A DNA stretch of 64,000 nt from a virus (IMGVR_UViG_3300021420_000017:1-64000), one strand, 5' to 3'; counted from the first letter of the stretch, positions 27,936-45,031 are shown. Made by a program: numbers and translations. The notes: a model not told the origin generated them from the letters alone.

Positions 27936-28138
27936 GTGGCTTGCCCTTCTCCAAGGGGTCGCTGGGCCGCATAGGTGAGCCTTATTTAGCGACTCATGCC
28001 CTGGATGACCTCTTCCGCCAGGTGCCGAGCAGCAGTCACACCCGGGAATACGTCATGCCGGACGGCCGAGTCGCGTTCTATACGGTCGGGACCCAACGTC
28101 GATGGGCTGAGGAAGAATGGTGGAAGAGCAGCGCATGA
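27932..28138 (+). CDS. hypothetical protein
   Basis: Coupled at both ends. Confidence 0.5.
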   Translation: MSGLPFSKGSLGRIGEPYLATHALDDLFRQVPSSSHTREYVMPDGRVAFYTVGTQRRWAEEEWWKSSA

Positions 28139-28854
28139 CCGAGCTACGCGCGAGCGGAAAGACAGTTGGTGATGAGATCGCGGCAGAGGAGGCCATGAAC
28201 GGCTTGGGTCTCATCGGGGAGAAGGGTGAACTCGGTCTAACAGGCGGGGTGGTAGGGAAGCTGCCGGAGGATCTGCACTCTTCCATGGCCCCGGCCTGGC
28301 GCAGGATGGACACCTCCTGGACGTCCCCGGATCACGAGATCCTGTCCCAGATGCGCCGCGCGGTGGACGTCATGATCAAGGAACGCTTCGCTGAGTGCTT
28401 CGAGCTGTTCTACGAGATCAACATGCTGGTGCGCGAGCCGATTATCGATGAGGCGAGCGGGGAGATGCAGGTGGACGAGTTCGGGCTGCCTGAGTGGCAA
28501 CGTACGGCCATGGGAGCCTACAGGGAGGACTGGTCCAGGCTCGGCTACAAAGAGCGCGAGAACTTCCTCTACAAGCTCACCGTGGGCCTGTTCCGGTGGG
28601 AGCAGCGAGCGGTCGACCTGCAGGGGGAGGCGCTGTTGGGCAGAGCGGTATTCGAGGAGGCTTTCAGCCACGGTTACGAGGCCCGGGACGATTCGCGGGC
28701 CACGATCGAGGATCGCACCGCGCGGGCCCGGGTGCTGGCCGCTGAGTATCGCTATCGAGCTGTTTATATGACCTATTTATCGAAGCGAGCGGATGCGGTT
28801 TGTCGGTCTGCAGAGCGACTGGCGCTTCGTTTGCGCGACCTTCACACCAACTAA
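28135..28854 (+). CDS. hypothetical protein
   Basis: ATGA coupling, strong codon bias. Confidence 0.75.
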   Translation: MTELRASGKTVGDEIAAEEAMNGLGLIGEKGELGLTGGVVGKLPEDLHSSMAPAWRRMDTSWTSPDHEILSQMRRAVDVMIKERFAECFELFYEINMLVREPIIDEASGEMQVDEFGLPEWQRTAMGAYREDWSRLGYKERENFLYKLTVGLFRWEQRAVDLQGEALLGRAVFEEAFSHGYEARDDSRATIEDRTARARVLAAEYRYRAVYMTYLSKRADAVCRSAERLALRLRDLHTN

Positions 28855-28989
28855 ACTGGCCTGACAAGTCGAGGATTGGTTGGAACGATTGTCACACTTG
28901 CGAGTCGCAACTTGCGCAAAGTCATCTAGCTCAGGCATCCTGTCTGCATAGGGTTTCGAGCAGCCCTTCCGCCGACTGCAGGCGCCCCC

Positions 28990-29646
28990 GTGAGATCAGA
29001 AGAGACGGACCGGACCTGGTTGTGGATCCCGAGTGATTCTCGGACTGACTCGCGGGTGAATAGTCTTCGGATTTTATTTAGGCACCTGCTGGCGTTTCGC
29101 TCACTGCATGAGGCTGACGGAACATTCGAGATCACCGCCCCAACCGGTCAGACATGGTCACTCTTTGATATCGAGTATCTCTACTCGGCAGCGATGCGCA
29201 GACCGATTGATGTCACCGGAACATTGCGCGTGGCGGAAGATCTCGCCCCCGGTTTCTATGTTCAGCTCTCGGGTGTCTGGAGCCTCATTGAAGGTGTCCA
29301 TTGCGATGTCAAGACCAAATCGAAACCATTGGTGCTTGCTCTGTCACAGGAGCGTGTGAAGCGCTTTGCTTGCGAGGCCAGCGTGTTGTCTCTGAGTCCT
29401 CAGGAAAAGCGCCTGCTCGACCACAACAAAGCCAATCCGTGCCTCCCTCTACGTCAGCAACAGGCGATCGAGCTGTTCCTGGTGTTGAACCTGCCCGAGG
29501 CCGAAGCTGCTGTCCGGATGGGTCTAGCTCCTACCAATCCAGTGGGTATGTACGCTACGTCTGGCCTGACGCGCTTGCTCAAGCTCATGGATGAGGGTTA
29601 TCTGCCCCGTTTCGCCGATGATGGCCGCATGCTGTCCGTAGCTTAG
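28990..29646 (+). CDS. sigma-70 region-4-like HTH transcription regulator
   Basis: LPLRQQQAIELFLVLNLPEAEAAVRMGL C-terminal HTH. Confidence 0.6.
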   Translation: MRSEETDRTWLWIPSDSRTDSRVNSLRILFRHLLAFRSLHEADGTFEITAPTGQTWSLFDIEYLYSAAMRRPIDVTGTLRVAEDLAPGFYVQLSGVWSLIEGVHCDVKTKSKPLVLALSQERVKRFACEASVLSLSPQEKRLLDHNKANPCLPLRQQQAIELFLVLNLPEAEAAVRMGLAPTNPVGMYATSGLTRLLKLMDEGYLPRFADDGRMLSVA

Positions 29647-29655
29647 GAGAGATAG

Positions 29656-30021
29656 ATGAGTTTGAGAGTGCATTCCGGAATCCATCGGGAATCTGAAGAC
29701 GAAGCCGATCGCTTGATTTACGACAGCATTCGACACATCACTAACCGCGAGTTGAAAGCTGATGTGCTCACCCCCTGGAAGGAGCGGCACCGTCAGCAGC
29801 ACGAGGTCTATACCAGTCATGGTGGCCCGGTGGACCCTTCGACTCGCATAGGCATCTTCGGTCGGGCCTATAACTCGCGCCAGACCCATTTGAACTCCTA
29901 TGACGGACCAACGCGCCCTATCAAAGACAAGTCTTGGGATCCGGATCTCTCTTTCGGTGGAGGAGCGTTGTTCCTCTCTCCCGATATGAGGAACGCTGTC
30001 GGTGTGGACCGGCTGGACTGA
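29656..30021 (+). CDS. hypothetical protein
   Basis: AGGAG RBS; TGATG coupling to next gene. Confidence 0.7.
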   Translation: MSLRVHSGIHRESEDEADRLIYDSIRHITNRELKADVLTPWKERHRQQHEVYTSHGGPVDPSTRIGIFGRAYNSRQTHLNSYDGPTRPIKDKSWDPDLSFGGGALFLSPDMRNAVGVDRLD

Positions 30022-30707
30022 TGGGGAAGTCCGTCTCTCCTCTGCGCACCTCGATGGTGGAGATCAAGATCGGCAACCGGATCTATCCGGCCCATCGATC
30101 CAACCACTGTTCGGTCTGCATGCACCCGGCGCGCGCGCTGATTGAGGAGCGGCTGCTCCTGAATGAGCCCTACTCCTCGATTACGTCATGGGTCAGCGGG
30201 CTGGAGACGAGGCAGGACGACGGCACCCCGGTGACCTACGCGCATATCACCCCGCAGCAGTTGTCCAATCACTTCAAGCGGGGCCACTGCCCGCTCGATA
30301 CCAAGGTGCTGCACGAGATCACCGAGCAGTTGATGGCCGACGTCAGTGCCCCTTACGAGGAGTCCATTGGGCGCATTGTCGAGCCCCTGGTGCTGGCCAA
30401 GCTCACGATGATGCGCACCCAGGAGATGCTGGCCAGGGGCGAGCTGGTCCCCACTGTGCGAGAGGGCCTCGCGGCGGCCAAGTTGGTGCACGCCATCGAG
30501 ATCGATGCCCAGCCGACCGAGATGGAGCGCCTGCAGCTCTATGCCGAGGCAGTAAGGGTCTACTTCGCCTCGGTGCGCAAGCACGTGGACAAGGCCACCT
30601 GGAATGCTATTTCCGATGACCTGGCAGGAAGCCAGGAGCTAGCCGCGATCGACGCCAAGTTGAGCGAGATCGACAACATCCAAGACGCAGAACTGGTGGA
30701 AGGTTAA
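30021..30707 (+). CDS. Zn/HTH protein, possible terminase small subunit
   Basis: CSVC..H, ITPQQLSNHFKRGH helix; position upstream of terL. Confidence 0.4.
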   Translation: MGKSVSPLRTSMVEIKIGNRIYPAHRSNHCSVCMHPARALIEERLLLNEPYSSITSWVSGLETRQDDGTPVTYAHITPQQLSNHFKRGHCPLDTKVLHEITEQLMADVSAPYEESIGRIVEPLVLAKLTMMRTQEMLARGELVPTVREGLAAAKLVHAIEIDAQPTEMERLQLYAEAVRVYFASVRKHVDKATWNAISDDLAGSQELAAIDAKLSEIDNIQDAELVEG

Positions 30708-30710
30708 GCA

Positions 30711-31127
30711 ATGAGTGGACTCTGGACTCCGCAAGGCTCAGGAACGTCGGCGATCGAGATCGATGATTCGCAAGTGGAACTGCACGATAGCGACTTCCTC
30801 AAGATCGAGAAGGGTCCGCTCGCGTACGCCCGAGAAAGGGCGCACTCCTCGATGGAGATCGACGCCTTCGTGCGGGCGATGTCGCATGAGTTCTATCAGA
30901 TCGGTCTGGTGGTAGACGTTCAGCCCTGGACCACGCAGCAAGAGGGCACCTACATTTTTAAGTGCGTCATTGTGAAGCGACTCACCGAGTTCGATCCGGA
31001 CCGGCAGGTTCATGAAGTGGTGTCTAACATTCTTGAGATCCCCGGCGAGGGTGGTTGGATCAATACAAAGAACGCGATGCAGGATCGCGATAAGAGTCGG
31101 GGAGACAATGGCCGACACAAGCATTGA
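30711..31127 (+). CDS. hypothetical protein
   Basis: Codon bias, operon position. Confidence 0.7.
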   Translation: MSGLWTPQGSGTSAIEIDDSQVELHDSDFLKIEKGPLAYARERAHSSMEIDAFVRAMSHEFYQIGLVVDVQPWTTQQEGTYIFKCVIVKRLTEFDPDRQVHEVVSNILEIPGEGGWINTKNAMQDRDKSRGDNGRHKH

Positions 31128-31425
31128 GGTAGACCTGTACACCATTTTCCTGGGTGGTATACATATCGCTTGCTACGAGTGTGACGTGGTCAGTCATGAG
31201 ATCGAGATCGGGATATTCATCGACGATTCTGAATCAGAGATGGAGTCGATCGGGGTTATCAAGTTCGATAGCTGTCAGCACTTGTATATGTGTGGTTGTC
31301 TCACAGATATTATTGCTCTTGCGATCGAGCACCATCAGCAAGGCGTTCTCAGCATCCATGACATCTGCAAGCTGGATGGCTGCACATGCCCCGCCGACGA
31401 TGAAGATGCGTCTGATCCGTCATGA
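31108..31425 (+). CDS. Cys/His-rich hypothetical protein
   Basis: GGAG RBS, ATG 31108. Confidence 0.55.
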   Translation: MADTSIEVDLYTIFLGGIHIACYECDVVSHEIEIGIFIDDSESEMESIGVIKFDSCQHLYMCGCLTDIIALAIEHHQQGVLSIHDICKLDGCTCPADDEDASDPS

Positions 31426-33491
31426 CATCCATGCGGGTGCGCCCTCGCCCGAAACAGGCGGCCAGCTCTTTCGCGCTGCCCAGGATCACGAATCATCGTG
31501 AGGCGATGGGGGACCTGAGTCTGAAGGTGCCCGACCCGATCACCTTCGCCACCAGCGAGAAGTACCTCAACCGCTATCTCTACCCCCGGCAGGCGACCTT
31601 CCTCAAGGTCATCTTCCTGCGGTTGGACCTGTTCACCGCCTATGACTATCAGGTCGTCGCCGAGTGGGAAGAGTCCTTCAAGGACACCCAGAGCAACGGC
31701 ATCACGCCCGGGGTCATCGATCGGATGATCTATCTGAAGGCGAATGGCCACAAGTGGTTCCGTGAGGTGCTGCTGGTGCTCGGCCGCCGCGCCGGTAAGG
31801 GCTACGTGTGCGCCATCGCGATGGCATACGTGCTGTGGAACTACATGGCCAAGGGCGACCCGCAGAAGGCCTACGGCATCGACCGCGATAAGCAGCTCAC
31901 CTGCCTGATATATGCGGGCAAGAAGGAGCAGGCCAAGGCTAACCTGTACAAAGATCTCTACAACGTCATTATCGGCGCCGAGTGCTTCACGCCCTACATC
32001 CCCGGCCGTCCGCTGGGCGACTCGATCTCCATCAACGCTCCGGTCGATGCAGAGAAGATGCGCAAGCTCGCCGCGCGGGGGATCCGACCCAACCTCGACC
32101 TGGCCACGTTCAAGATCGAGCCCCGTGAGGCCACGGCCATGTCAGCTCGTGGTGGGGCTGGTTTCATGTTGGGCTTCGATGAGTTCGCTCACGTCAACAA
32201 GTCGGTGTCGGCCAGCGATGCGGATGCGATCTATGGCTCGGCCAAGCCTTCGCTCGACCAGTTCAAGAAGGACGCCTTCATCGTTGAGCCCAGCTCGCCC
32301 TGGGAGATGATCGGTCAGTTCTACATCAACTGGCAGCACGCGCAGGAGATCGACCCGGAGACGGGTCTGCCGACCTACCCCGAGATGTTGCTCCTCCAGC
32401 TCGCCAGTTGGGAGATCTACTACGACTGGGACACCGCCGACGAGCTGCCCTTGTTCCCGGAGGAGTTCCTTGGCGACCTGGGTGAGTACGAGACCATCGA
32501 CCCGCCTTCGCTCTACACCCAGCGCAATGACGATGGGGAGCCCATCCCGCCTCCGCAGGAGTATGACGAGGCGATGAAACGGGAAGAAAAGGGTAATCCT
32601 GATACTTTCGCCGTGGAACGTCTCAGTCACTGGCAAACAACTCAAGACGCCTATTTAGACCGCGAGAAGATCGCAGAGATGTTCCAACCATTCGCCGGGC
32701 AGCCCGCTCTGCAGATGACCACCAGAGGGGCGCTGGGGACTTACTACCTCGGGCACGCCGACCCCAGCACGGTGAACGACAATTTCGGCCTCGCGGTAGG
32801 GCACACCGAGCGAGATCCGCTGACCGGCTTTCAGTGCGTCGTCTTCGATTACCTGCATCACTGGAACCCGGCCGACTGGCCTGATCACACCATCAACTAT
32901 GTCGAGATCAACAAACAGCTCTGGGATATTATTAAGGGGTTTCCGGTCGACGTCTTCACCTTCGACCAGCATCAGAGTAAGTTCTTCATCGACGAGTTGA
33001 ATATGCGAGCGCGCAAGTCTCAACTGCCGAAGACACCGCGCATCGGGCTGAACACCCAGACCGCTCCGCGCAAGCTCAAGGTCGCAGAGAACTTCAAGAT
33101 TGCGTTGAATCAAGGGTGGGTAAAATCGCCCTTTTACGAACAAGCAGAACAAGAGCTACAATTTCTACAATTCAAAAATGGCAAGGTAGTACACCAGGAG
33201 CGCGGGCCGGTACAGCACGATGACGTGGCGAGCTGCATGTTCGAGGTGGTCTATGCCCTGCTGGGTAACCAGGTTAAGAGCTGGCGCGACGGGGACAACC
33301 TGATCCCCTTGACCGGAGCCGCCTCGGGCGGGATCCGGCCCTTCATGTCGCCCGGCACTGAGAACGACAACGCGATCATCAGTCAGTTCACCGAGCTGCG
33401 GAAGAGCCGGGGACAGAGCTATTCCCCTGCCCGGGGACCGCGCCCTGACTCGATGCGCCGACCGGGCCCCTCGGGCGGATTCCGCAGGTAG
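31422..33491 (+). CDS. terL: terminase large subunit
   Basis: Walker A LGRRAGKG, Walker B LGFDEFAH, RNase H-like GHADPS..ND.F, FDQHQS, HDDVA. Confidence 0.88.
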   Translation: MTSMRVRPRPKQAASSFALPRITNHREAMGDLSLKVPDPITFATSEKYLNRYLYPRQATFLKVIFLRLDLFTAYDYQVVAEWEESFKDTQSNGITPGVIDRMIYLKANGHKWFREVLLVLGRRAGKGYVCAIAMAYVLWNYMAKGDPQKAYGIDRDKQLTCLIYAGKKEQAKANLYKDLYNVIIGAECFTPYIPGRPLGDSISINAPVDAEKMRKLAARGIRPNLDLATFKIEPREATAMSARGGAGFMLGFDEFAHVNKSVSASDADAIYGSAKPSLDQFKKDAFIVEPSSPWEMIGQFYINWQHAQEIDPETGLPTYPEMLLLQLASWEIYYDWDTADELPLFPEEFLGDLGEYETIDPPSLYTQRNDDGEPIPPPQEYDEAMKREEKGNPDTFAVERLSHWQTTQDAYLDREKIAEMFQPFAGQPALQMTTRGALGTYYLGHADPSTVNDNFGLAVGHTERDPLTGFQCVVFDYLHHWNPADWPDHTINYVEINKQLWDIIKGFPVDVFTFDQHQSKFFIDELNMRARKSQLPKTPRIGLNTQTAPRKLKVAENFKIALNQGWVKSPFYEQAEQELQFLQFKNGKVVHQERGPVQHDDVASCMFEVVYALLGNQVKSWRDGDNLIPLTGAASGGIRPFMSPGTENDNAIISQFTELRKSRGQSYSPARGPRPDSMRRPGPSGGFRR

Positions 33492-33516
33492 AGCGATCTT
33501 AAGGGAGAATCAAGGA

Positions 33517-33744
33517 ATGAAGATCATGATGATAGTGGCACCCTCTGAGGCGGAGTATGAGGTCGGCACTCAGCGCGTTATTGAGCAGTTGGAAAATGTT
33601 CTCCCGGTGGTTGATTTGACATTAGTTAGGGCAGATTTTGCAGATATATGTAGTCGAAAATCAGTACATATCTTGCTAGATGCCCTGCTTGATGCGGCGA
33701 ATGAAGATTGCGCGCGGCGAGGACTGACCGCAGATCTGGTCTGA
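33517..33744 (+). CDS. hypothetical protein
   Basis: AAGGA RBS; AT-richer. Confidence 0.5.
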   Translation: MKIMMIVAPSEAEYEVGTQRVIEQLENVLPVVDLTLVRADFADICSRKSVHILLDALLDAANEDCARRGLTADLV

Positions 33745-33756
33745 TATTCCTGTCGC

Positions 33757-33785
33757 TGGTTACTCGACCGGCGTCTGGATAGCGT
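33757..33785 (+). promoter_or_regulatory. SigA-like promoter, probably leaderless mRNA for 33792
   Basis: TGGTTA-CTCG...-TAGCGT (17-nt spacer) ending 6 nt before ATG 33792. Confidence 0.55.
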
Positions 33786-33791
33786 TCTGGC

Positions 33792-34262
33792 ATGGATGAC
33801 AACGAAGACATCGACTATGCCGTTGAGCTGCGCCGCCTCGGGGCCAAAGACCCACTGCGCCCGATGCGGGCTCGATGGTTTCTCGATGCAGACGGTTCGA
33901 ATCGTGCGCCCGTCCTGAACATCTACCCGCCCGATGGTGGGTCGATTGTGCGCACTCTGGGAGTCGGGGTGAACTTTCTTGGCCTGTGGAAGGAGCCGCA
34001 GGTCAACTACTATTTTGACAGCAACGAGATCGGCAAGACGTGGGAGCAGATCGCGGCGCATGCCTATGGCCAGGTGCTGCGCCAGCGAGCACTGGCCGAA
34101 CGACTAGGCCGGGTCGGAATCAGGCGCGAGCCCGAGCCCTACATCCTGGATGGCACTGAGCCCAACTCGGTCAAGCGCAGCATGGTGCTGAACTTCGATG
34201 AGCTGGATATGCTCTTGGACCTGGCCAAGGTGCCGCAGAGCGATCTCGACCTCTTGAAGTAG
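33792..34262 (+). CDS. hypothetical protein
   Basis: Codon bias, own promoter. Confidence 0.7.
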   Translation: MDDNEDIDYAVELRRLGAKDPLRPMRARWFLDADGSNRAPVLNIYPPDGGSIVRTLGVGVNFLGLWKEPQVNYYFDSNEIGKTWEQIAAHAYGQVLRQRALAERLGRVGIRREPEPYILDGTEPNSVKRSMVLNFDELDMLLDLAKVPQSDLDLLK

Positions 34263-34372
34263 TGAGAGGTCTTCCCGCGCCGGGCCGACCCCAGGACCCG
34301 ACCGCAGCGCGACCTGATCAGAGGCACCCGGCGCGGGAGCCCGTTCTGTCTAGTCCGCCCGGGAGGGATCTA

Positions 34373-37300
34373 GTGGTAAGAATCGAGCCTGCTCCGTCTC
34401 CTCAGCGAGTCCCGGGTGAGAGCACTGAGCACTTCCTCATGCGGCAAGCCAACTGGAAGCTGGATCGGGATTCCTTCCGGCGCCTGGCTGGATGGGAGGA
34501 CGAGAATGACGCTGACGACGGCCGGATGCAGCACAGACCGGCCGACCGGGATGGCACGCCGATCCACGATATGACCCATAACTTTCCATCCGATATCTAC
34601 ACACATCCGCACTACTACTCAGACATGACTGAGCCTTCCAATCAGAAGGCCCATGACGTCATTAATCGGGTGCGCGGCAATCCTGAGGCCAACGTGCACA
34701 TCTACCGGTCACTGCCCGCCGAGCATGCCCACCAGGGGTTCCGGCCAGGCGACTGGGTCTCGACCTCCAAGGACTATGCCAGGCAGCACGGCACCCACGC
34801 CAGCGACCCAAAACACGACTGGCCGGTCATCCACACCGTGGTCAAGGCCAAGGATCTGCACACCGACGGCGACGACTTCCGCGAGTTTGGCTACAACGGC
34901 GATGAGCGCAAGCCGGGCAACGTTGCCTTCAAGGGCGGCTACCACCAGGAGGTGCGTGATCATCCCGATGGTGGTGTGGTGCCGGTAGTGCATCGGGGTC
35001 CGACCCCGACGAAGGGATACACCTTCCGTAACAGCCAGCAGTCCTGGGATGGCAGCGCTGGCAGCGCTGGTCACATCACGGCCTATGCTCCCGATGAGTC
35101 CTACGCCGGGCATGCTACCTACTGGCACGGTAAGCCCGACGAGACGCACATCGACCCTGACCACCAGCATTTGGCCGATGAGCTGACCGAGCGCATGCAC
35201 AGGATGATCCCGAAGTTCCGGGAGGCATCTTTGCAGGTAGAGGCTGTCCCGGCTCCACAGAGAGCGCCTGGGGAGAGTATCGAGCACCTGCGCGCCAGGC
35301 ATGCCAACTGGCGGCTCGACCAGTGGGCGCTCCAGATGCTGGCTGGAGCGGACAAGATCGAGCACCCCTACCTGCAGGTGCTGGATCACGAACTGGAAGA
35401 TCTGGATGACGAGGGACTGTCAGCGCAGGCCGTCCAGGTGCCGCCAGCGGGCCTGAGTTTCACCCACGACGACATGGAGACTGGCGGCTCTAAGCATCCG
35501 ATCAGAACCCATCTGCGGGCGCATACGCCGGAGGACGGTCAGGTCGGCGCGCTCATCTATTACCCACCCAGGCGCCGCAATGGCGTGGTGACGATCCACA
35601 ACTTGCATGTTGAGCCAGATCAGCGGCGCCGGGGGATCGGTAGCGCGCTGATGGATGAGGTTCAGCGTCGCCACCCGGATTCGACCCTAGATCATGGAGA
35701 TAGGACCGCAAACGGGGAGGATTGGTGGGAAGGCTATACAGACGGCAAGACGGTGCGTCGGGGTCGCACGGCTTTGCTGGAGAGGGTCGAGAAGTTGGGT
35801 CCGATCATTCCGGTCGCGGGTGTTTTGGAAGGGTCAAGCACCCCCTACGACGCGACGTATCAGACCCCCGACGATCTGCATTATCTCCATCGAGATCCCC
35901 AAGGCGTGTACTCGCGCACGAAGGCTGGCCGATTGAGTGGATTTCTGAACTGGAACAGCCAGGGCGAGGTCGGATCCGTTCAGGTCCACCCGGATTACCG
36001 TCGACATGGGCTTGCGAGCGCTCTCTGGGAGCACGCCAAGATGGCCGAACCTAACTTGCACCACTCGACCACTTTGTCCAATGACGGTGCGGCCTGGGCC
36101 GAGAAGACTGCCGGGGCCGAAGGCGCTAATTACGCTAATATTCGTTTTCAGAAGGAGGATGGAGATTCTCATAACGAGTACTCTTTGTTTGCGGTGCATC
36201 CAGATCATGGGGATGTAGGGTATTTAAGGTACAGCGATGGAGGGGATCCTGCCGCTCAGGTTCAGGTTCACATGATGAGGGTGCGTCCTCAGCACCGACG
36301 CAGGGGCGTCGGTAGTGCGTTGATGGATGAGTTGCAGCGGCGATATCCCGGCGCTTCGATTGATCACGGTGACAGGACCGCCAACGGGGATGACTGGTGG
36401 GCTGGCTACTCCGACGGTAAGACGGTGCGCCGAGGTCGGACGGCTGCCGTGTCTCAGACCCACTGGCACGTCAGTGACAGTCGCAATCGGGACTCGATCG
36501 CCGAGCATGGGTTGGATCTTGCGCACAGCTCCGACGGTCAGCACATTTGGCTGCACGGAGATGAGGACGAGGCCCGCCAGTACCAGCAGATGGGCGCGAC
36601 TCGCGACATGCACGGCACTCCTGTGACCAAGGATCTCTACCGCGTCGACACCACCGGCTACCGGACTTCCAAGGAGCCGCACGGGGTCGCCGATATCGGC
36701 CAGAGGGTGGTCAAGCGATCCATCCCGCCCGAGCGCATTGAGCGCATCGAGTCGTCACTTGTTACTCGATCCCTTCTAGTGGAGAATGTTGTCTATGAGC
36801 ACCCACGGATCGATCCAGAAGTACTCCGCCGAGGATCTGGAGTCGGCTCGGTTGAACGGCATGTCGCCCGAGGAGCACGCGAAGATCCTCGACCGGATCA
36901 GCTACTTCGACACGCCGCATCCGGAGAGTGTGTGTCCTCCGCACATTTCTTCCCGGGAATGGCACGCGATGCAGCGGGCAGCCAGCAAGGCGCCACAGAG
37001 CCTCTGAGTTACGATCCACATCCGCAGATTGCCAGTGATCTTCGATTGCTGCCGGATCGGGTGCAGGATGCATTTCACGACCGCGTGGACGGGCTGCGTA
37101 GCGGCGAGCGGCATCCGTCAACTCATCCGCTTAAGGGCAAGCTTCAGGGCGGTTGGCATGGGACGTCGATCGGCGGGAATCAGTATCGGATGATCCATAG
37201 GGTGCGCGACGGGGTGTTGCAGGTGTCGGCCGCCGGTGCTCATGACGACGCTTACAACAACGCGATCAAGCGGCAGAAGGGTACTAACTCCTACTTCGGT

Positions 37301-40159
37301 AGTTGGATCGCCAGTGTCAATAGTCGATGGCGCGAGGGTCAGCGAAAGCGATGCCCCTGTGGGTTGATGGCCGAGTTCGATCCGCTTGATGGCTGGCAAC
37401 ACTTGGATGGGTCGATCAGCCACGAGGACGGTGGCGAGTCCGTCTCGCAGAGGATGTCTTGTACTGCCTGCTCCGGCACTGGCGAGCAGGGAACTGGGCA
37501 TGAGTGCTATCAATGTGATGGCACGGGGCTGCGCGAATATCAGAACCCATCAGTCGACAATGCCAATTCAGAAAATGAGCTGCTGGTGGGACGCGACGAT
37601 GGCAACGGCATCAAGCCCGTACTTGCAGCTCGATTTACTCCGGACCAAAGGGTGTTCACCCATACAGATGGCCTAGACCATCGCCTGTTCGACCAGGATG
37701 GACATCTTCGCCCCGAGGTGCGCAGCTACATCATGGGCTCGATCGAGCAGTTCTGGCGAGGTCGCTATCGTGACTGGGCGCACTGGGCGAAGGTCTACTT
37801 TGCTGGCTCAGAGGCTTCCATGTGGACGTCTCCGACACTAGAGGGCAACTCAGATTTCGATGTCCTCGTCGGCGTGGAGTATGACCGGTTCCGTGCGGCT
37901 AATCCGCAGTACGCCGATCTGAGCGACGCCGAGATCTCGGCTCAGATGAACCACGAGTTCGGGGCCGGGCTGAATAACTCCGAGACCTACATCACGGTCG
38001 ACGGAGTGTCTACGGGACCCTGGTCGCGCACGACCTACGTGAACGAAGATTCGTACGATATTAAGCGCATTAAGCCATATGCAGCCTATGATGTCGGCAA
38101 TGACCGCTGGGTCGTCAAGCCACCGGACCTGCCGCACTGGTCAGTCGATGACCTCCCCAAGCCCGTGGTGGCTGAGCTGCGTGCGGTTGAGGCCTACGCG
38201 AAGGCCGTGCTGAAGCTCCCCGAGCCAATGCGTACTCAGCAGGGTGCAGCGCTGTTCGAGCACCTGCACTCTGATCGGTCACGAGCCTTTAGCGATAGAG
38301 GAGAGGGCTGGATCGACCCCGGGAATCTCGCCGAGAAGTGGCTGGATATGGGTGGCTGGTGGGCTGAGCTGGTCGACTGTGCCCACCGAGCCAAGGAAGG
38401 GCTCGACCTCGCTCCCGCTGACTGGTCGAACACGCCGCCCGGCTATACCGCATCTGCTAGCAGTTTGCAGATCACTCATAAGTCTGAGACAAATCCTGAT
38501 GCCGATCCTGATGATGAATATGATAAAGATTGGGTGTTGCATACCATCGTTGGTCATGTGAATGGTCAACAAGTGGGGAAGTTAGAAGTTGATAAGCATC
38601 CTTCCGAGGCGCGAGGCGTCGTATCAGACATAGCTATTCATCCGGATCATCGACGCAAGGGATACGCCACTGCGCTATTGCAACATGCTCGCGAACATCT
38701 GGGTTTCCCGATCGATCATTCAGAGCGACTTACCGATGACGGTAAAGCCTGGTCGGATAAGGTCGGCCATATGGTTAAGTTGCCCAAGACCGAGACCTGT
38801 AAGTACTGCGATCAGCCCGCAACCGGGCGCGTGATCTGGGCAGAGGGTATGGCGTACATCCCAGTTTGTGACGAACATGAGCGGCGTGCGATCGACCATG
38901 TCGGCGACGACTATTGCAACACTCGGCCGATCCCGAAGACTGCGGTGCATCATCAGGCGATGCCATGGCATGAGCAGCGCGGGGGTGAGTCGGCCGAGGA
39001 GGTCGGAGCCAAGTCGGTGCGTCATGCGGGTTTCAAGGGATTTGTTGGGCCGAGTTATGACGATGAAAGCTACGGCGAGACTCACCATGATGGCGAGTTC
39101 GATGAGGATGCTTGGGATCGAGCTGCACCAGAGCCGACTTCGGCAGAGCATGCTCATTATGAACAGCATGACGAGTATCCAGATACTTATCACGAACGTC
39201 ATGAGCAGGCATATGGCCATGAGATCGACAAGAAGCGCCAGGAGGATGTGCCCGATCACGAGGACGACCACTTGCACCACTTCATCAGCGAGCACGGGGC
39301 TGAAGCCCCCGTGTGGACTAAGCACAGCAAGCAGCCAGTCCGAGTTGATCTGACCAAGGGTGTCTATGCGACCCAGAGCCATGTCGGGCAGAAACATATC
39401 GATCGATATTTGGCTGACCCGCATGATCAGGCCTGGCATTTGCAGTCGCATCCTGGCGCAGATAGTGATGGATACCTTGGTAACGGGCACCCGATGTTCG
39501 TCACCCATGAGGGGCGACTTCATGTCACAGAGGGGCATCACCGGGTCGCGGCTGCTCTCCAGCGAGGCGATTCTTCGATCGAGGGCTGGCATCACGATCT
39601 GGACAAGCACCCGATCGCGGAGAACTACCACACCCACGAGCCATGCGAGGACTGTCAGTATCACGCCAGCGGAGACGAGGAGAAGCGCCATTTTGCCTGG
39701 CGTCACATGGGGCTCAGGCGAGACGATCTTTACGGCACGGGCGACGTAGATAAGCTCTTCCACGGCAGCCCGACCACTTCGGCGCCCTTCACCCCTGCTG
39801 GCCGCTCCAAGCGCTATCACGACTATGACAAGGATCTGGTCGCGCAGGCGATCTCACACCCGGAGGATCACCACATGCAGGATGTGGATCCGCGCGAACT
39901 GCGTAGTACCCAGCCCAGCGTGATCCGGGCTGGAGTAAGCCATTACCTCACTGATAAGTACGACAAGACCGGGGAGACGTATGCAGACATGCACCATCCC
40001 GGCAATCGGCGGCCGATCGTCTATCACCGTGAGGCAGATGACAACAAGATCCTTCTGAGTGGACACCACCGTGCCGCTGCTGCTCTACTACAGGGTAAAC
40101 CACTTCAAGCGATCGTCGTGCGAGGCGGTTACGGAGAGCCGAGAGGAGGCACCTCATGA
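34373..40159 (+). CDS. large polyvalent protein: ART-like, GNAT x4-5, Tpt1/KptA-like ART, RelE-like, Zn fingers, nucleotidyltransferase, ParB-like x2
   Basis: IYRS..WVSTS..EFGY; V.P..RRRG.GSAL GNAT motif A repeated; H.S...N..SI..HGL; HPLKG..YRMIH..GAH; CTACSGTG..CYQCDGTG; AGS..DFDV; GHHR twice. GGAGG RBS favours GTG 34373 over 34262. Confidence 0.8.
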   Translation: MVRIEPAPSPQRVPGESTEHFLMRQANWKLDRDSFRRLAGWEDENDADDGRMQHRPADRDGTPIHDMTHNFPSDIYTHPHYYSDMTEPSNQKAHDVINRVRGNPEANVHIYRSLPAEHAHQGFRPGDWVSTSKDYARQHGTHASDPKHDWPVIHTVVKAKDLHTDGDDFREFGYNGDERKPGNVAFKGGYHQEVRDHPDGGVVPVVHRGPTPTKGYTFRNSQQSWDGSAGSAGHITAYAPDESYAGHATYWHGKPDETHIDPDHQHLADELTERMHRMIPKFREASLQVEAVPAPQRAPGESIEHLRARHANWRLDQWALQMLAGADKIEHPYLQVLDHELEDLDDEGLSAQAVQVPPAGLSFTHDDMETGGSKHPIRTHLRAHTPEDGQVGALIYYPPRRRNGVVTIHNLHVEPDQRRRGIGSALMDEVQRRHPDSTLDHGDRTANGEDWWEGYTDGKTVRRGRTALLERVEKLGPIIPVAGVLEGSSTPYDATYQTPDDLHYLHRDPQGVYSRTKAGRLSGFLNWNSQGEVGSVQVHPDYRRHGLASALWEHAKMAEPNLHHSTTLSNDGAAWAEKTAGAEGANYANIRFQKEDGDSHNEYSLFAVHPDHGDVGYLRYSDGGDPAAQVQVHMMRVRPQHRRRGVGSALMDELQRRYPGASIDHGDRTANGDDWWAGYSDGKTVRRGRTAAVSQTHWHVSDSRNRDSIAEHGLDLAHSSDGQHIWLHGDEDEARQYQQMGATRDMHGTPVTKDLYRVDTTGYRTSKEPHGVADIGQRVVKRSIPPERIERIESSLVTRSLLVENVVYEHPRIDPEVLRRGSGVGSVERHVARGAREDPRPDQLLRHAASGECVSSAHFFPGMARDAAGSQQGATEPLSYDPHPQIASDLRLLPDRVQDAFHDRVDGLRSGERHPSTHPLKGKLQGGWHGTSIGGNQYRMIHRVRDGVLQVSAAGAHDDAYNNAIKRQKGTNSYFGSWIASVNSRWREGQRKRCPCGLMAEFDPLDGWQHLDGSISHEDGGESVSQRMSCTACSGTGEQGTGHECYQCDGTGLREYQNPSVDNANSENELLVGRDDGNGIKPVLAARFTPDQRVFTHTDGLDHRLFDQDGHLRPEVRSYIMGSIEQFWRGRYRDWAHWAKVYFAGSEASMWTSPTLEGNSDFDVLVGVEYDRFRAANPQYADLSDAEISAQMNHEFGAGLNNSETYITVDGVSTGPWSRTTYVNEDSYDIKRIKPYAAYDVGNDRWVVKPPDLPHWSVDDLPKPVVAELRAVEAYAKAVLKLPEPMRTQQGAALFEHLHSDRSRAFSDRGEGWIDPGNLAEKWLDMGGWWAELVDCAHRAKEGLDLAPADWSNTPPGYTASASSLQITHKSETNPDADPDDEYDKDWVLHTIVGHVNGQQVGKLEVDKHPSEARGVVSDIAIHPDHRRKGYATALLQHAREHLGFPIDHSERLTDDGKAWSDKVGHMVKLPKTETCKYCDQPATGRVIWAEGMAYIPVCDEHERRAIDHVGDDYCNTRPIPKTAVHHQAMPWHEQRGGESAEEVGAKSVRHAGFKGFVGPSYDDESYGETHHDGEFDEDAWDRAAPEPTSAEHAHYEQHDEYPDTYHERHEQAYGHEIDKKRQEDVPDHEDDHLHHFISEHGAEAPVWTKHSKQPVRVDLTKGVYATQSHVGQKHIDRYLADPHDQAWHLQSHPGADSDGYLGNGHPMFVTHEGRLHVTEGHHRVAAALQRGDSSIEGWHHDLDKHPIAENYHTHEPCEDCQYHASGDEEKRHFAWRHMGLRRDDLYGTGDVDKLFHGSPTTSAPFTPAGRSKRYHDYDKDLVAQAISHPEDHHMQDVDPRELRSTQPSVIRAGVSHYLTDKYDKTGETYADMHHPGNRRPIVYHREADDNKILLSGHHRAAAALLQGKPLQAIVVRGGYGEPRGGTS
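36795..37007 (+). CDS. nested 70-aa ORF in another frame inside the polyvalent gene
   Basis: High GC3 codons in this frame, GGAG RBS at 36781, promoter motif CTTGTTACTCGATC at 36758. Confidence 0.5.
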   Translation: MSTHGSIQKYSAEDLESARLNGMSPEEHAKILDRISYFDTPHPESVCPPHISSREWHAMQRAASKAPQSL

Positions 40160-40395
40160 GTACGAGCTGGTGGATCACCCCTACCCTTATGCTCGGGGCA
40201 CTCCCGGCCAAGATCTACCGCGCCAAGCGTGTGAGCAGTCCTGATGAGGCCCTGTCGGCCGTCCAGGCGGGTTATACCGCAGTGCTGCCTGACGGGGCCT
40301 GGGAGGCCGCGACGCGCGTCCTGCTCGATCTGGGGCTCTCGCGCCACGATGCCGAGGATCGGATCCGCTTCGCTCGTACCGGAGCGACCGCGTGA
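40156..40395 (+). CDS. hypothetical protein
   Basis: GGAGG RBS, ATGA coupling. Confidence 0.65.
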   Translation: MSTSWWITPTLMLGALPAKIYRAKRVSSPDEALSAVQAGYTAVLPDGAWEAATRVLLDLGLSRHDAEDRIRFARTGATA

Positions 40396-40658
40396 GAGAG
40401 TCCTGCGCGATCGTGAGCGTGCGCATTCCGGATGGCCAGATGGAGTCCGTGCGCAGACAGGCGGCCCAAGTCGGGCTCAGTGTGTCGGCCTACATCCGGG
40501 ACATGCTGGTACCCGTCGCGCCGGTGCGTACCTATCAGAATGGCTCTGTCTGGATGAGCGGCCCGTTCCTGGAGCCGCCCATGATCAATGGGGAGCCCTT
40601 GAAAGAGATTGAGTCTGTGAGAGCGGGGTTGAGATGGGGCGTGCCTATCTTGACCTAG
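40392..40658 (+). CDS. ribbon-helix-helix DNA-binding protein
   Basis: IVSVRIPDGQMESVRRQAAQVGLSVSAYIRDML. Confidence 0.7.
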   Translation: MRESCAIVSVRIPDGQMESVRRQAAQVGLSVSAYIRDMLVPVAPVRTYQNGSVWMSGPFLEPPMINGEPLKEIESVRAGLRWGVPILT

Positions 40659-40837
40659 TCGATGTTTCCGAGGTCGCAGATCTGCTCGGGATGAGTCGTC
40701 AGCGCGTGCACCAGATGTGTCTCGCAGAGACCGTGCCGACCCCAGCGGGCTATGTCGGGGCTCGACGGCAACGGGTATGGTATCGCGCTGACATCCTTGC
40801 ATGGCTGGAGCGCCGAGCTGTCGATCGCGTGAGCTAG
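40634..40837 (+). CDS. AlpA/excisionase-like HTH protein
   Basis: DVSEVADLLGMSRQRVHQM..PTP..VWYRADILAW. Confidence 0.7.
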   Translation: MGRAYLDLVDVSEVADLLGMSRQRVHQMCLAETVPTPAGYVGARRQRVWYRADILAWLERRAVDRVS

Positions 40838-40917
40838 AATCTTGGTTGATCGCACGCAGGCGCAAATCTGGTGCGCAGTCACTCCCTCTGTTCCCCCGAG
40901 TAGCCGGAGGCTGCCGC

Positions 40918-41331
40918 ATGTCCCCCGCCCGATTGAACCCTGAGACCGGCCGCAATGAGTACGCGGCAGCCCAGGTCCAGGCCCGCTTCTACGTCCACAA
41001 CGTGAGCCACACTGCAGTCCCGAACGGCAAGAACAATGGCCCCGTCGAGTTGTATCCCACCACGCGCGGCCGGGAGAACAAGACCTGGGCGCAGGCCACC
41101 CCGAGCGGCAACATCAAGCTCACGATCAACGGCAACGCGCTGGAGTGGTTCATGGACCGCCTCGGCAAGGACGTCGCGATCACCTTCGAGGACCGGCCGC
41201 TGATCTGCGCCAAGTGCAAGGGTGAGCTGAGCGGCGACCAGTACGGCAGCACGACCGAGCCCGTGCCCGGCACCGACGGCACGCAGTGGCAGCACCGAGC
41301 CGGATTGTGCTCAGGGAGCGGCAACGCCTGA
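40918..41331 (+). CDS. hypothetical phage protein
   Basis: GGAGG RBS; N..WAQATPSGNIKLTI motif. Confidence 0.65.
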   Translation: MSPARLNPETGRNEYAAAQVQARFYVHNVSHTAVPNGKNNGPVELYPTTRGRENKTWAQATPSGNIKLTINGNALEWFMDRLGKDVAITFEDRPLICAKCKGELSGDQYGSTTEPVPGTDGTQWQHRAGLCSGSGNA

Positions 41332-43489: not shown

Positions 43490-43926
43490 TCATCGAAGTA
43501 GTAGATCGTCCAGTCGTAGCGACCCCATCGCTTTGTGGTGGCTCGGATGACTCTGCGTTCTTCTCGATGACGCGCGTAGGGCGCGATCTCCCTTGCCGGG
43601 CTCGGGCGTGAATGTGGACTTGGCCTTCTGCCGCCGGAGTTTGCCAACGTGGTAGTTCAGGGCCCGGTAGAGCAGTTTGATGTCGTGCTCATCCAGCTCC
43701 ATCAGGCCACCTCACCCTCACTGTCGTTATACCAAGGACCGGTGATTTGGGCGCTGTGTACCACCTCGACCTCGGCGAACATTTCCAATGCCTTCCCTGT
43801 GCTCCAGAGCATCGTGATTTCGGATTCGGCCTGCCGACGGGAGTAGGCGGTATGAATGTGGTATTGATTCACGAGCATCGAATCGGGGTCGATTACTTTC
43901 ATGCGAATGCCCCAGTAGAGATCCAT
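43490..43926 (-). other. two small coupled genes, 43702-43926 and 43490-43702
   Basis: TGATG couplings and GAGG RBS. Confidence 0.5.
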
Positions 43927-44807
43927 CAGGTCACCTCCTCAGTCGGGTCCAGGCCGATGCCCGCAGCGATCGTGTTGACTGCTTTGAGCACGTTCTGGGC
44001 GGCCGCCTGCAGCACCTCGGGCTTACTGTTGGCCCAGCCTGCGACGTAGCTGATCGAGCTGGCGTCCAGGTCGAGCCCGAGCAGCCCGGCGAGCACGTAG
44101 GCAGCTGATTCGGCTTCGGTCTCGGCCAGGCCCCGGTGGGCCACGTACTCGGCCGAATCCTTGTGCAGGAGTGCGTGCGCCGCCTCGTGCAGTAGTACCG
44201 CGAGCTGGGCATCGATACCGAGCTTGTCACTCAGCGCGATGCGCTTGCCTACGTGGCTGGTGTAGCCCTCCAGGCCGCTCCGGGTCTCCTCGGTTTCGAC
44301 GATCCAGCCCTCCACGGCGAGCCAAGTCTTGAGCAGGTTCAGTTGGAATCCGTGGTCGCTGCTCTCGGGCAGGACGCAACCCTGATCGGGCAGATCATCG
44401 CCCTCTGTTTGGGAGACGTCGAAGACGCTCAGGATGGGGAAGGTTGGGATCTGTGACTCCTCGTCCTCGCCGGTGGCGGGATTGGTCTGTACTACCTTGC
44501 GGCTGGAGTAGCCCAGAATCTTGATGGCCCTCTCGCCCTTGCGGACCTGGCGACCGAACTCCTGCCACTTGCGGAATCCGGCCACGCGGGTGGCGTCCGG
44601 GCGCTGGGTGAGGATCAGCATCTGGTTGTTGAAACTGTACTTGCGGAAGGCTCTTGTGAAGTTCAGGTAGGCGATCCACTCAGCCGAGTTGGACAGGGTG
44701 GTGATCTTGCCGTTCAGGGTCTCCAGCAGCGCCTCGCGCTCGGCGCGGTGTTGCTCGGGGGTCTTGCTCGCTTTCCTGGCGGCGAGACGGGTCTTCATGG
44801 CGGTCAT
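43926..44807 (-). CDS. ardC: ArdC-like antirestriction protein (ssDNA-binding N-domain + zincin metallopeptidase domain)
   Basis: YSFNNQMLI..Q, VAGFRKWQEFGRQVRKGE, VFDVSQTEG, HEAAH..H, ETEAESAAY, SISYVAGW; AGGAGCCATC RBS. Confidence 0.85.
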   Translation of the reverse strand: MTAMKTRLAARKASKTPEQHRAEREALLETLNGKITTLSNSAEWIAYLNFTRAFRKYSFNNQMLILTQRPDATRVAGFRKWQEFGRQVRKGERAIKILGYSSRKVVQTNPATGEDEESQIPTFPILSVFDVSQTEGDDLPDQGCVLPESSDHGFQLNLLKTWLAVEGWIVETEETRSGLEGYTSHVGKRIALSDKLGIDAQLAVLLHEAAHALLHKDSAEYVAHRGLAETEAESAAYVLAGLLGLDLDASSISYVAGWANSKPEVLQAAAQNVLKAVNTIAAGIGLDPTEEVT

Positions 44808-45031
44808 GATGGCTCCTCGGTGGTACGTGGCGACGATGCAGACGATGTGGTTCCGAACTTGTGCAGCCAGATCTCTTGCTCGATGTAGGCGCGGGTGGCC
44901 CCGCCGGTCTTGGTGTCGAAGTGCCCGCACGAGCAGGTGGCGTCATAGCCCCACTGCCCGCGCATCCTGGTTGTATGTCTGATGCGCTCGCTCCCGGCGT
45001 AGACCCACCAGCGGATGTTGTGGGCGGCCAT
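44804..45031 (-). CDS. small Zn-binding phage protein
   Basis: MRGQWGYDATCSCGHFDTKTGGA. Confidence 0.65.
   Translation of the reverse strand: MAAHNIRWWVYAGSERIRHTTRMRGQWGYDATCSCGHFDTKTGGATRAYIEQEIWLHKFGTTSSASSPRTTEEPS

Follow-up and report, generated by a model that had tools for sequence, protein, structure and literature searches.

A giant modular gene behind terL of a large phage, with a recurrent junction motif and a nested antitoxin-like gene, as candidate for head-protease-processed virion cargo

We analyzed a 64,000-nucleotide stretch of DNA from a large soil virus (IMGVR_UViG_3300021420_000017:1-64000; hereafter the window), which is the first part of a 146,650-bp contig with overlapping ends, and in particular a giant modular open reading frame (ORF) located directly behind the gene for the large terminase subunit (terL). 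What we observed concerns the architecture of the encoded protein, the folds of its modules, its synteny, the statistics of a short basic-x-Ala motif at module joints, and the conservation of a small gene nested in the +1 frame. Packaging, cutting, ejection and the enzyme activities are what we infer from these observations. The explanation that we favor, and that we place slightly on the probable side, is that the giant protein is head cargo which the head protease cuts into separate effectors for ejection, the nested antitoxin guarding the producer cell. Packaging of the giant protein taken by itself is quite probable.

The giant frame is uninterrupted on the plus strand from position 34262 to the stop codon at 40159. 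The best start is the GTG at 34373, which has GGAGG 6 nt upstream as ribosome-binding site and yields a protein of 1,928 aa.

34373..40159, plus strand: giant modular ORF, 1,928 aa, likely GTG start
31422..33491, plus strand: terminase large subunit gene (terL), the conserved upstream neighbor (phrog_2, E 5e-17; synteny)

An earlier note on this DNA, made from the sequence alone, had described a protein of ~1,930 aa adjoining the terminase, and the ORF is indeed intact and directly behind terL. The same note had named misassembly of separate genes as a possible refutation. Misassembly, or chance read-through of separate genes, is extremely improbable because dozens of homologs are likewise single giant ORFs. 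The stretch 36758-36997, which reads off-frame in the giant frame, could be taken as a sign of it; this stretch is explained by the nested gene described below, and the giant frame is open across it in many independent genomes. A Logan contig covers 31000-41000 with zero differences, and probably comes from the source sample and is thus not independent. Homologs of TerL and of the head protease place the phage near Rhodococcus phage E3, the cluster C mycobacteriophages and the Gordonia phages Skog, Pupper and Stormageddon. The host is likely an actinomycete.

The chain holds about fifteen enzyme and zinc-finger modules, among them ADP-ribosyltransferases (ARTs), GNATs and a nucleotidyltransferase. 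Scores of the AlphaFold2 models are given as predicted local distance difference test (pLDDT).

34382..34489, plus strand: N-terminal leader, ending in junction-like RQA (34448) and RLA (34487); duplicated at 35243-35344
34490..34930, plus strand: ART1, ADP-ribosyltransferase fold with R-S-E triad (AlphaFold2 pLDDT 85)
34985..35227, plus strand: degenerate GNAT-like module, usually joined to ART1
35429..35773, plus strand: GNAT a (Pfam), RTA junction at its end
35774..36112, plus strand: GNAT b (Pfam), KTA junction at its end
36113..36445, plus strand: GNAT c (Pfam), duplicate of GNAT a, RTA junction at its end
36446..36757, plus strand: ART2, small ART/KptA-like module, motif-level only (10 segments sharing YH and EHG motifs)
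36995..37276, plus strand: RelE-superfamily (YoeB/YafQ-like) RNase module (profile against PDB)
37349..37540, plus strand: CPCG zinc-ribbon-like module (about 37349-37456), then DnaJ-type CxxCxGxG finger (conserved motifs)
37631..38452, plus strand: Pol-beta-superfamily nucleotidyltransferase with helical C-lobe, the conserved core of the family (AlphaFold2 pLDDT 93)
38453..38767, plus strand: GNAT d (Pfam), low GC content of 0.49
38777..38944, plus strand: CxxC...CxxH zinc finger, also in E3 gp206, KTA junction at its end
38945..39697, plus strand: ParB/Srx-like module 1 with acidic His-rich N-terminal part, GHHR at 39533, motif kept in 15 homologs
39698..40159, plus strand: ParB/Srx-like module 2, GHHR at 40061, motif kept in 10 homologs

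The second copy of the leader is a 108 nt ungapped duplicate, and the leaders of relatives are of the form FFR-x-A. In agreement with the earlier note, all four GNATs passed the Pfam search (four stretches, E 1e-31). The module that it had called a degenerate GNAT is without acetyl-CoA motif, and a profile built on its family finds gp113 of phage Alice, a solo GNAT (E 5e-7). Single-sequence searches of Pfam, NCBIfam and PDB gave nothing for ART1, ART2, the nucleotidyltransferase or the ParB-like modules. Foldseek gave no match at E <0.001 for the models of ART1 and the nucleotidyltransferase, and these two fold calls therefore rest on the uniform identity of weak matches and on VIA-align. Nearly all of the top-50 structural rows obtained for ART1 have the ART fold, with modest best Z scores of 6.3-6.4 (CNFy D4: Z 6.3, root-mean-square deviation 2.4, 88 residues aligned; KptA: Z 5.8), and residues R72, S92 and E131 of the segment, the triad, are invariant; the ART-like domain that had been suggested near 34520-34900 is thus a predicted ART fold. 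For the nucleotidyltransferase the best structural rows are minimal nucleotidyltransferases (1ylq: modest Z of 5.7, root-mean-square deviation 3.5, 89 aligned), and the Foldseek list consists almost entirely of nucleotidyltransferases at E about 0.01. Its GS and DxD motifs are intact, as expected for the proposed Pol-beta type. The third carboxylate is uncertain: an invariant Thr occupies the expected strand, and a nearly invariant Asp follows nine residues later. The landmarks given for this module (GS 37805, DFD 37853) and for the ParB-like modules (GHHR 39533 and 40061) are all exact.

The RelE/YafQ-like assignment was also borne out, since the profile matches YoeB 6l8e in the PDB (E 9e-4, 78 of 90 positions); TIGR02385 is matched at E 0.049. 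Residues H44, R65 and H83 of the segment are invariant, and R65 and H83 align to YoeB. Candidate catalytic His and Arg residues are thus present, and the YoeB Glu position is occupied by a His, as in YafQ. The giant protein has three zinc-binding modules. The DnaJ-type finger has a Pfam match below the cut-off (E 3e-4), and the zinc finger that had been placed at ~38795-38930 was found as a CxxC...CxxH motif at 38777-38944. Support for the remaining segments of the earlier note is at the level of motifs. Conserved motifs are present in the Tpt1/KptA-like ART2, for which Pfam, PDB and NCBIfam gave no match, and also in the two ParB-like modules, which matched nothing in Pfam or PDB; for module 1 the ESM Atlas provided a lead (0.86) to a cluster with 26% ParB_N. 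Segment by segment, the folds of the GNATs, ART1, the RelE-like module and the nucleotidyltransferase are supported, and those of ART2 and the ParB-like modules are not. The GC shifts that had been reported between modules are mostly small (0.57-0.69). Exceptions are the fourth GNAT (0.49; GC content at third codon positions, GC3, 0.42), which is likely a recent acquisition, and the overlap region (GC3 0.46). The CPCG zinc module, the duplicated 35-aa leader, the junction motif, the late-promoter-like motif and the nested +1 gene were not part of the earlier description.

Local alignments between relatives began or ended at short basic-x-Ala sites 2,471 times, versus 619 times by chance, a fourfold excess. 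Among 92 proteins, the density of [RK]TA is 6.06 per 1000 aa at the edges of modules, compared with 0.41 in cores, and the same contrast was found in a held-out set of 129 proteins outside profile building (7.18 versus 0.41). The longer form [RK]TA[ASGM] was counted 156 times, versus 18 in shuffles. The giant protein itself has six [RK]TA sites (0.85 expected), four of which are at joints: these clear sites close GNATs a, b and c and the second zinc finger (35771, 36110, 36443 and 38942). Looser junction sites are present at 34448, 34487, 35225, 35342, 36914, 37310, 37628 and 38450. The joints of E3 gp206 and Skog gp173 are motif-like as well, and the motif is not enriched in classic polyvalent proteins sharing ART1 (43 versus 49 shuffled).

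The same motif is found in head proteins. At 80-103 kb of the contig this phage has its head module, with genes for the portal, for a protein of 1,635 aa, for a head maturation protease that carries a scaffold-like tail, and for a major capsid protein that is closest, among solved structures, to phage G gp27. The motif is enriched in the protease/scaffold and in neighboring head proteins, all of which belong to the training set of our weight matrix. In phages Alice and Stormageddon and in the AT-rich Bacillus phage G it is enriched in head-region proteins including each portal, and in phage G and Alice in the protease itself (phage G: gp7 10 versus 1.7, protease gp19 4 versus 0.4, portal 3 versus 0.6). 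The tail sheaths of these three phages are devoid of it, and their capsid proteins nearly so. The proteases of this phage, cluster C and phage G belong to a single family in which His and Ser motifs are conserved (36% identity for phage G gp19, E 4e-23). The simplest reading is that the motif is the recognition site of the head protease, and it probably is the cut site too. Cleavage after Ala resembles that by herpesvirus assemblin. As a side observation, basic-x-Ala is 5-9 times enriched in gp4, gp7, gp11, gp14 and gp19 on phage G 1-45000, and flanks the gp19 protease domain; the motif is thus a candidate cleavage code of phage G, a cultured megaphage. Also in the head module, the 1,635-aa protein (genome 92885-97792) contains an intein, a NUDIX domain and many junction motifs, and the portal (genome 88129-91023) by eye has a short intein-like insert near its N-terminus. 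A weight matrix obtained from head proteins by expectation-maximization converged diffusely and was dropped as primary evidence.

Alternatively, the giant protein may be packaged and act as one polyvalent chain, the motif being a core-binding or packaging tag; or the protein may be cut only after ejection. Restriction of the motif to head-region proteins fits a tag equally well, many joints are without the strict motif, and PMC5512222 reports that the virion RNA polymerase of phage N4 is packaged unprocessed. One tag per protein would be enough, but the sites are repeated at joints inside the chain and stand on either side of the protease domain. Furthermore, small residues are preferred on both sides of the Ala, which we take to be assemblin-like. 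We consider this alternative fairly unlikely.

Immediately in front of the RNase module, a second gene overlaps the giant frame.

36795..37007, plus strand: nested +1-frame gene, 70 aa, antitoxin-like, with its own GGAG site; its stop abuts the RNase module

Over this gene GC3 is 0.82 in the +1 frame versus 0.50 in the giant frame, and across the loci for which it was computed the values are 0.82-0.92 and 0.40-0.58, respectively. Homologs of the nested gene are present in 13 other loci, and an equivalent ORF of 41-70 codons, which has a separate ribosome-binding site and whose stop falls on the first residues of the toxin, was found in 14 of the 15 loci for which DNA covers the region. In homologs available as protein only, in which the nested frame was assessed by codon compatibility alone, the C-terminal signature is compatible in 11 of 29, versus 13 of 3000 background windows. 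Most nested peptides end in W-E-x-hydrophobic-K-x-x-L-G-L or a related helix, of a type that is typical of RelB/ParD-like antitoxin tails; the peptide of this phage aligns to its homologs via Pro-Glu and Arg residues. No in-frame homolog was found among the polyproteins, and the peptide is therefore unlikely to be a frameshifted module. Searches of Pfam and NCBIfam with the nested products (41-70 aa) gave no match, and no DNA-binding domain was recognised. In nine of ten loci, this one included, there is no ATG, GTG or TTG near the first residue of the toxin. Being without a standard start, the RNase would be made within the polyprotein and the small gene translated separately.

When the nested peptide and the RNase were modelled as a complex, the score was 0.78, versus 0.01 for the best control; of 80 solved pairs, 58 attained the mark set for this score, as did 2 of 110 mismatched ones. 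The runs agreed in at least 89% of contacts, partner pLDDT was at least 66, and the model brings the invariant R34 of the antitoxin into contact with the invariant H9 of the toxin. As RelE-antitoxin complexes have been solved, this pass may in part be due to likeness. We regard it as very probable that the nested gene encodes the antitoxin of the RNase module. In six loci (L013, L016, L020, L022, L023 and L026) a tandem RelE-RelE follows a single nested gene of a second subtype.

The family to which the giant protein belongs includes 58 giant relatives that share modules in shuffled order, and 68 different module orders were counted among the 92 proteins. Its core is the nucleotidyltransferase, which forms 365 clusters (50% identity) at E <1e-30; a first viral scan with a single nucleotidyltransferase sequence as query had found nothing. 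In IMG/VR loci the nucleotidyltransferase is present in a gene of 500-2,000 aa directly behind terL in essentially every large-genome case, and the position behind terL was seen in about 30 loci. BRock-like Streptomyces phages have it as a solo gene of ~330 aa, which in BRock adjoins the endolysin. The terL-linked gene is absent in the cultured cluster C, E3 and Stormageddon phages, and small versions, such as E3 gp206 (zinc finger, GNAT and ART1) and Skog gp173, are found elsewhere in the genome. Two loci deviate at roughly one and the same point of the nucleotidyltransferase: L021 has a large insert there, and in L036 the module is split over two ORFs.

This variability would also be expected if the gene were mostly the result of neutral accretion, in which head proteolysis makes the locus tolerant of insertions, recombination adds module after module, and the nucleotidyltransferase alone matters. 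The many architectures, the internal duplications, the degenerate GNAT, the solo nucleotidyltransferase kept by BRock-like phages, and the cultured relatives that do without the terL-linked gene all fit such a scenario. We nevertheless regard it as quite unlikely: catalytic motifs are kept in ART1, the RNase, four GNATs and both ParB-like modules, and two frames have stayed open over about 200 nt in many lineages, which points to selection on an active toxin.

The context of the gene is that of virion genes.

34255..34265, plus strand: late-promoter-like motif TGAAGTAGTGA, an 11-mer with 10 exact copies in the genome, all on the plus strand

This copy of TGAAGTAGTGA is located 108 nt ahead of the start codon of the giant ORF. 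The other nine lie within 80928-137204, the virion half, mostly at boundaries before head, protease and tail genes; they precede, among others, the 1,635-aa head protein, the protease and the tail sheath. TGAAGTAGTGA would thus act as a late promoter; a sigma-70 scan of 33400-41000 found no promoter. At least eight relatives have the same effector modules built into their counterpart of the 1,635-aa protein, which is encoded in the head module ahead of the protease. The position behind terL, the shared motif and the fusion to a head-module protein together indicate a late, head-associated product. Early expression, which the earlier note had proposed as a test, is therefore the wrong test for a gene that looks late. 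Homologs of the 1,635-aa protein constitute a second slot for effector modules. Four short identical contigs in an RNA library of a second soil study were not taken as expression, their depth being too low and DNA carry-over being possible.

A late product might also act in the producer cell or lysogen, as a late modifier, a superinfection-exclusion kit, or a toxin-antitoxin addiction or defence module of a phage-plasmid. Relatives carrying the giant gene are indeed found as stand-alone contigs of 152-157 kb in Streptomyces isolate assemblies, 5 of 10 loci have a TANNNT box no more than about 40 nt from the start of the nested gene (7% background), and the called protein starts at the RNase in a few homologs. 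In this genome no TANNNT box was found upstream of the nested gene. Against an intracellular role, the toxin is without its own start in most loci, as described above, the motif is one that the giant protein shares with head proteins, and relatives have modules fused to a protein of the head module. We hold such a role to be unlikely. The 152-157 kb relatives (L053-L055) are of complete size and possibly phage-plasmids.

Taken together, the results lead us to favor the following scheme of packaging and processing. The gene would be the variable cargo slot of a large actinophage group and, judged from the shared motif, would be transcribed late together with the virion genes. The polyprotein would be built into the prohead, where an assemblin/HK97-type head protease would cut after Ala at module joints of the form basic-(Thr/Gln/Leu)-Ala followed by a small residue. 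This would give separate proteins of 10-30 kDa, ejected with the DNA: acetyltransferases, ARTs, a nucleotidyltransferase, an mRNase and ParB-like NTPase/nucleases. Their folds suggest that host targets would be acetylated, ADP-ribosylated and nucleotidylated and that ribosome-bound mRNA would be cut at the start of infection, by which the host may be redirected or its defences blunted. The RNase would have entered as a whole toxin-antitoxin cassette. Its toxin would have been joined in frame to the giant ORF, in most cases with loss of the separate start codon, while its antitoxin would have been retained in the +1 frame as an overprinted gene, translated from a ribosome-binding site of its own and keeping the toxin quiet in the producer. 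The virion-packaged conflict toolkit of the earlier note thus stands in being of polyvalent type, late and probably packaged; its single multi-domain enzyme is better described as a cut polyprotein with a nested antitoxin-like gene.

Several observations weigh against this scheme. The strict motif is present in only 47 of 124 non-redundant junctions, several joints of the giant protein are degenerate, and the position weight matrix from head proteins did not find the giant protein as a whole to be enriched (2 versus 1.9). TerL orthologs hold some conserved [RK]TA sites, and Dickeya phage JA13 has a distant homolog of the protease yet is not enriched for the motif. For the P1 position we rely on the analogy with assemblin. 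A literature search for a virion proteome with termini found none, and no cut or activity is on record for this uncultured clade. Finally, delivery of a general mRNase must spare the early mRNA of the phage itself, and a tightly bound antitoxin might be co-packaged.

Other genes near the giant ORF are as follows. Upstream of terL, 28117-31127 (plus strand) contains five or six uncharacterised genes that are syntenic in nearly all related loci, one of them with a stretch like sigma-70 region 4. Two small genes at 40156-40658 (plus strand) are coupled to the stop of the giant ORF; by eye the second is ribbon-helix-helix-like, and a homolog of the first forms the C-terminus of the polyprotein in locus L035. 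The window further encodes a DnaE-type DNA polymerase with an inserted HNH/intein-like segment (19866-24392, plus strand; PHROG matches at residues 980-1310), and an ArdC-like anti-restriction protein with a metalloprotease-like part (43926-44930, minus strand; phrog_7245, E 1e-15). Beyond the window, two genes at genome 64795-67193 (minus strand) by eye resemble those for a nicotinamide phosphoribosyltransferase and a PRPP-synthetase-like protein, and may be an NAD+ supply pair that could feed the ARTs.

Phages that have a protease like phage G gp19 may use a general strategy of effector polyproteins processed by the head protease, in which enzymes flanked by basic-T-A are packaged, released and ejected, and in which a captured toxin-antitoxin operon becomes a weapon by overprinting of its antitoxin; we regard this extension as possible, if slightly doubtful. 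If true, it would reveal the cleavage code, unreported until now, of phage G and the cluster C mycobacteriophages, and tailed DNA phages would load a swappable enzyme set into the head by a polyprotein strategy like that of RNA viruses. The joint motif would then predict ejected phage proteins and the start points of mature proteins, and would offer laboratories a route for loading protein cargo into heads of mycobacteriophages or Streptomyces phages. The family comprises hundreds of uncharacterised nucleotidyltransferases, ARTs and GNATs, which are candidate host-takeover or anti-defence enzymes. The nested gene, of a kind missed by standard annotation, would be one way to make a toxin without killing the producer cell.

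Neither the family, nor its motif, nor the nested antitoxin turned up in literature searches; an earlier mention is possible in the E3 proteome or in the 2020 phage G capsid papers. The cultured relatives E3 gp206, Skog gp173, cluster C gp75 and gp113, and BRock gp39 have the same ART1, GNAT, zinc-finger or nucleotidyltransferase modules. They differ in having one to three modules and in being located in the tail or lysis region, not behind terL, and are annotated as hypothetical or acetyltransferase. The RNase and its nested gene are like the YefM-YoeB and DinJ-YafQ pairs in that a small gene is located directly upstream, its stop abutting a YoeB/YafQ-like RNase, the binding here being modelled. 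In contrast to type II toxin-antitoxin systems, the antitoxin is overprinted in the ORF that hosts the toxin, and the toxin is an internal module that usually is without a start codon.

Prohead-protease-processed internal proteins are known from T4 (gp21 with IPI-III and Alt) and phiKZ (gp175). The A-X-E motif of SPN3US gp245 (PMC10052503) is alike in being a short motif present in protease, portal and internal head proteins, with cargo ejected with the DNA. Cuts in T4, phiKZ and SPN3US mainly remove N-terminal propeptides, after Glu, whereas here basic-T-A sites between enzyme modules are predicted; the enriched motif is [KR]-T-A plus a small residue, and not A-X-E. T4 Alt and phiKMV Rac modify RNA polymerase (PMC5512222, PMC7824862), and are precedents, not evidence.

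The closest comparison is with polyvalent proteins, which according to Iyer et al. 2017 (PMC5512222) combine 2-15 domains of disparate activity per polypeptide. The giant protein resembles them in its many disparate domains in one chain (ART, GNAT, Pol-beta nucleotidyltransferase, ParB-like and BECR-fold RNase), in coming from a portal-terminase phage and in its late context. With ~15 modules, a late/virion context and architectural mosaicism, it fits their broad description; ART1 is common to proteins bearing LPD, MuF_C or InPase (E about 1e-29), and PMC5512222 mentions gp113 of phage Alice, a lone GNAT that is homologous to those described here. Unlike polyvalent hubs, it has no Pfam match to a zincin peptidase, MuF, LPD, ArdC-N or H-Y-D ART, domains that are common in hubs and not obligatory. 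Its sole HExxH-like string is not conserved, and a few relatives carry PF18760 or SprT. The nucleotidyltransferase here is a two-lobed family of 260 aa, while that of polyvalent proteins is a minimal one of firmicutes (PMC5512222). The word "overlap" does not occur in PMC5512222, and its passages that we read give no account of this actinophage family. Finally, the processing proposed here would take place in trans, the head protease acting on a motif that recurs along the chain. The giant protein thus appears to fit the broad polyvalent definition, and would set itself apart by its proposed trans-processing code and its nested antitoxin.

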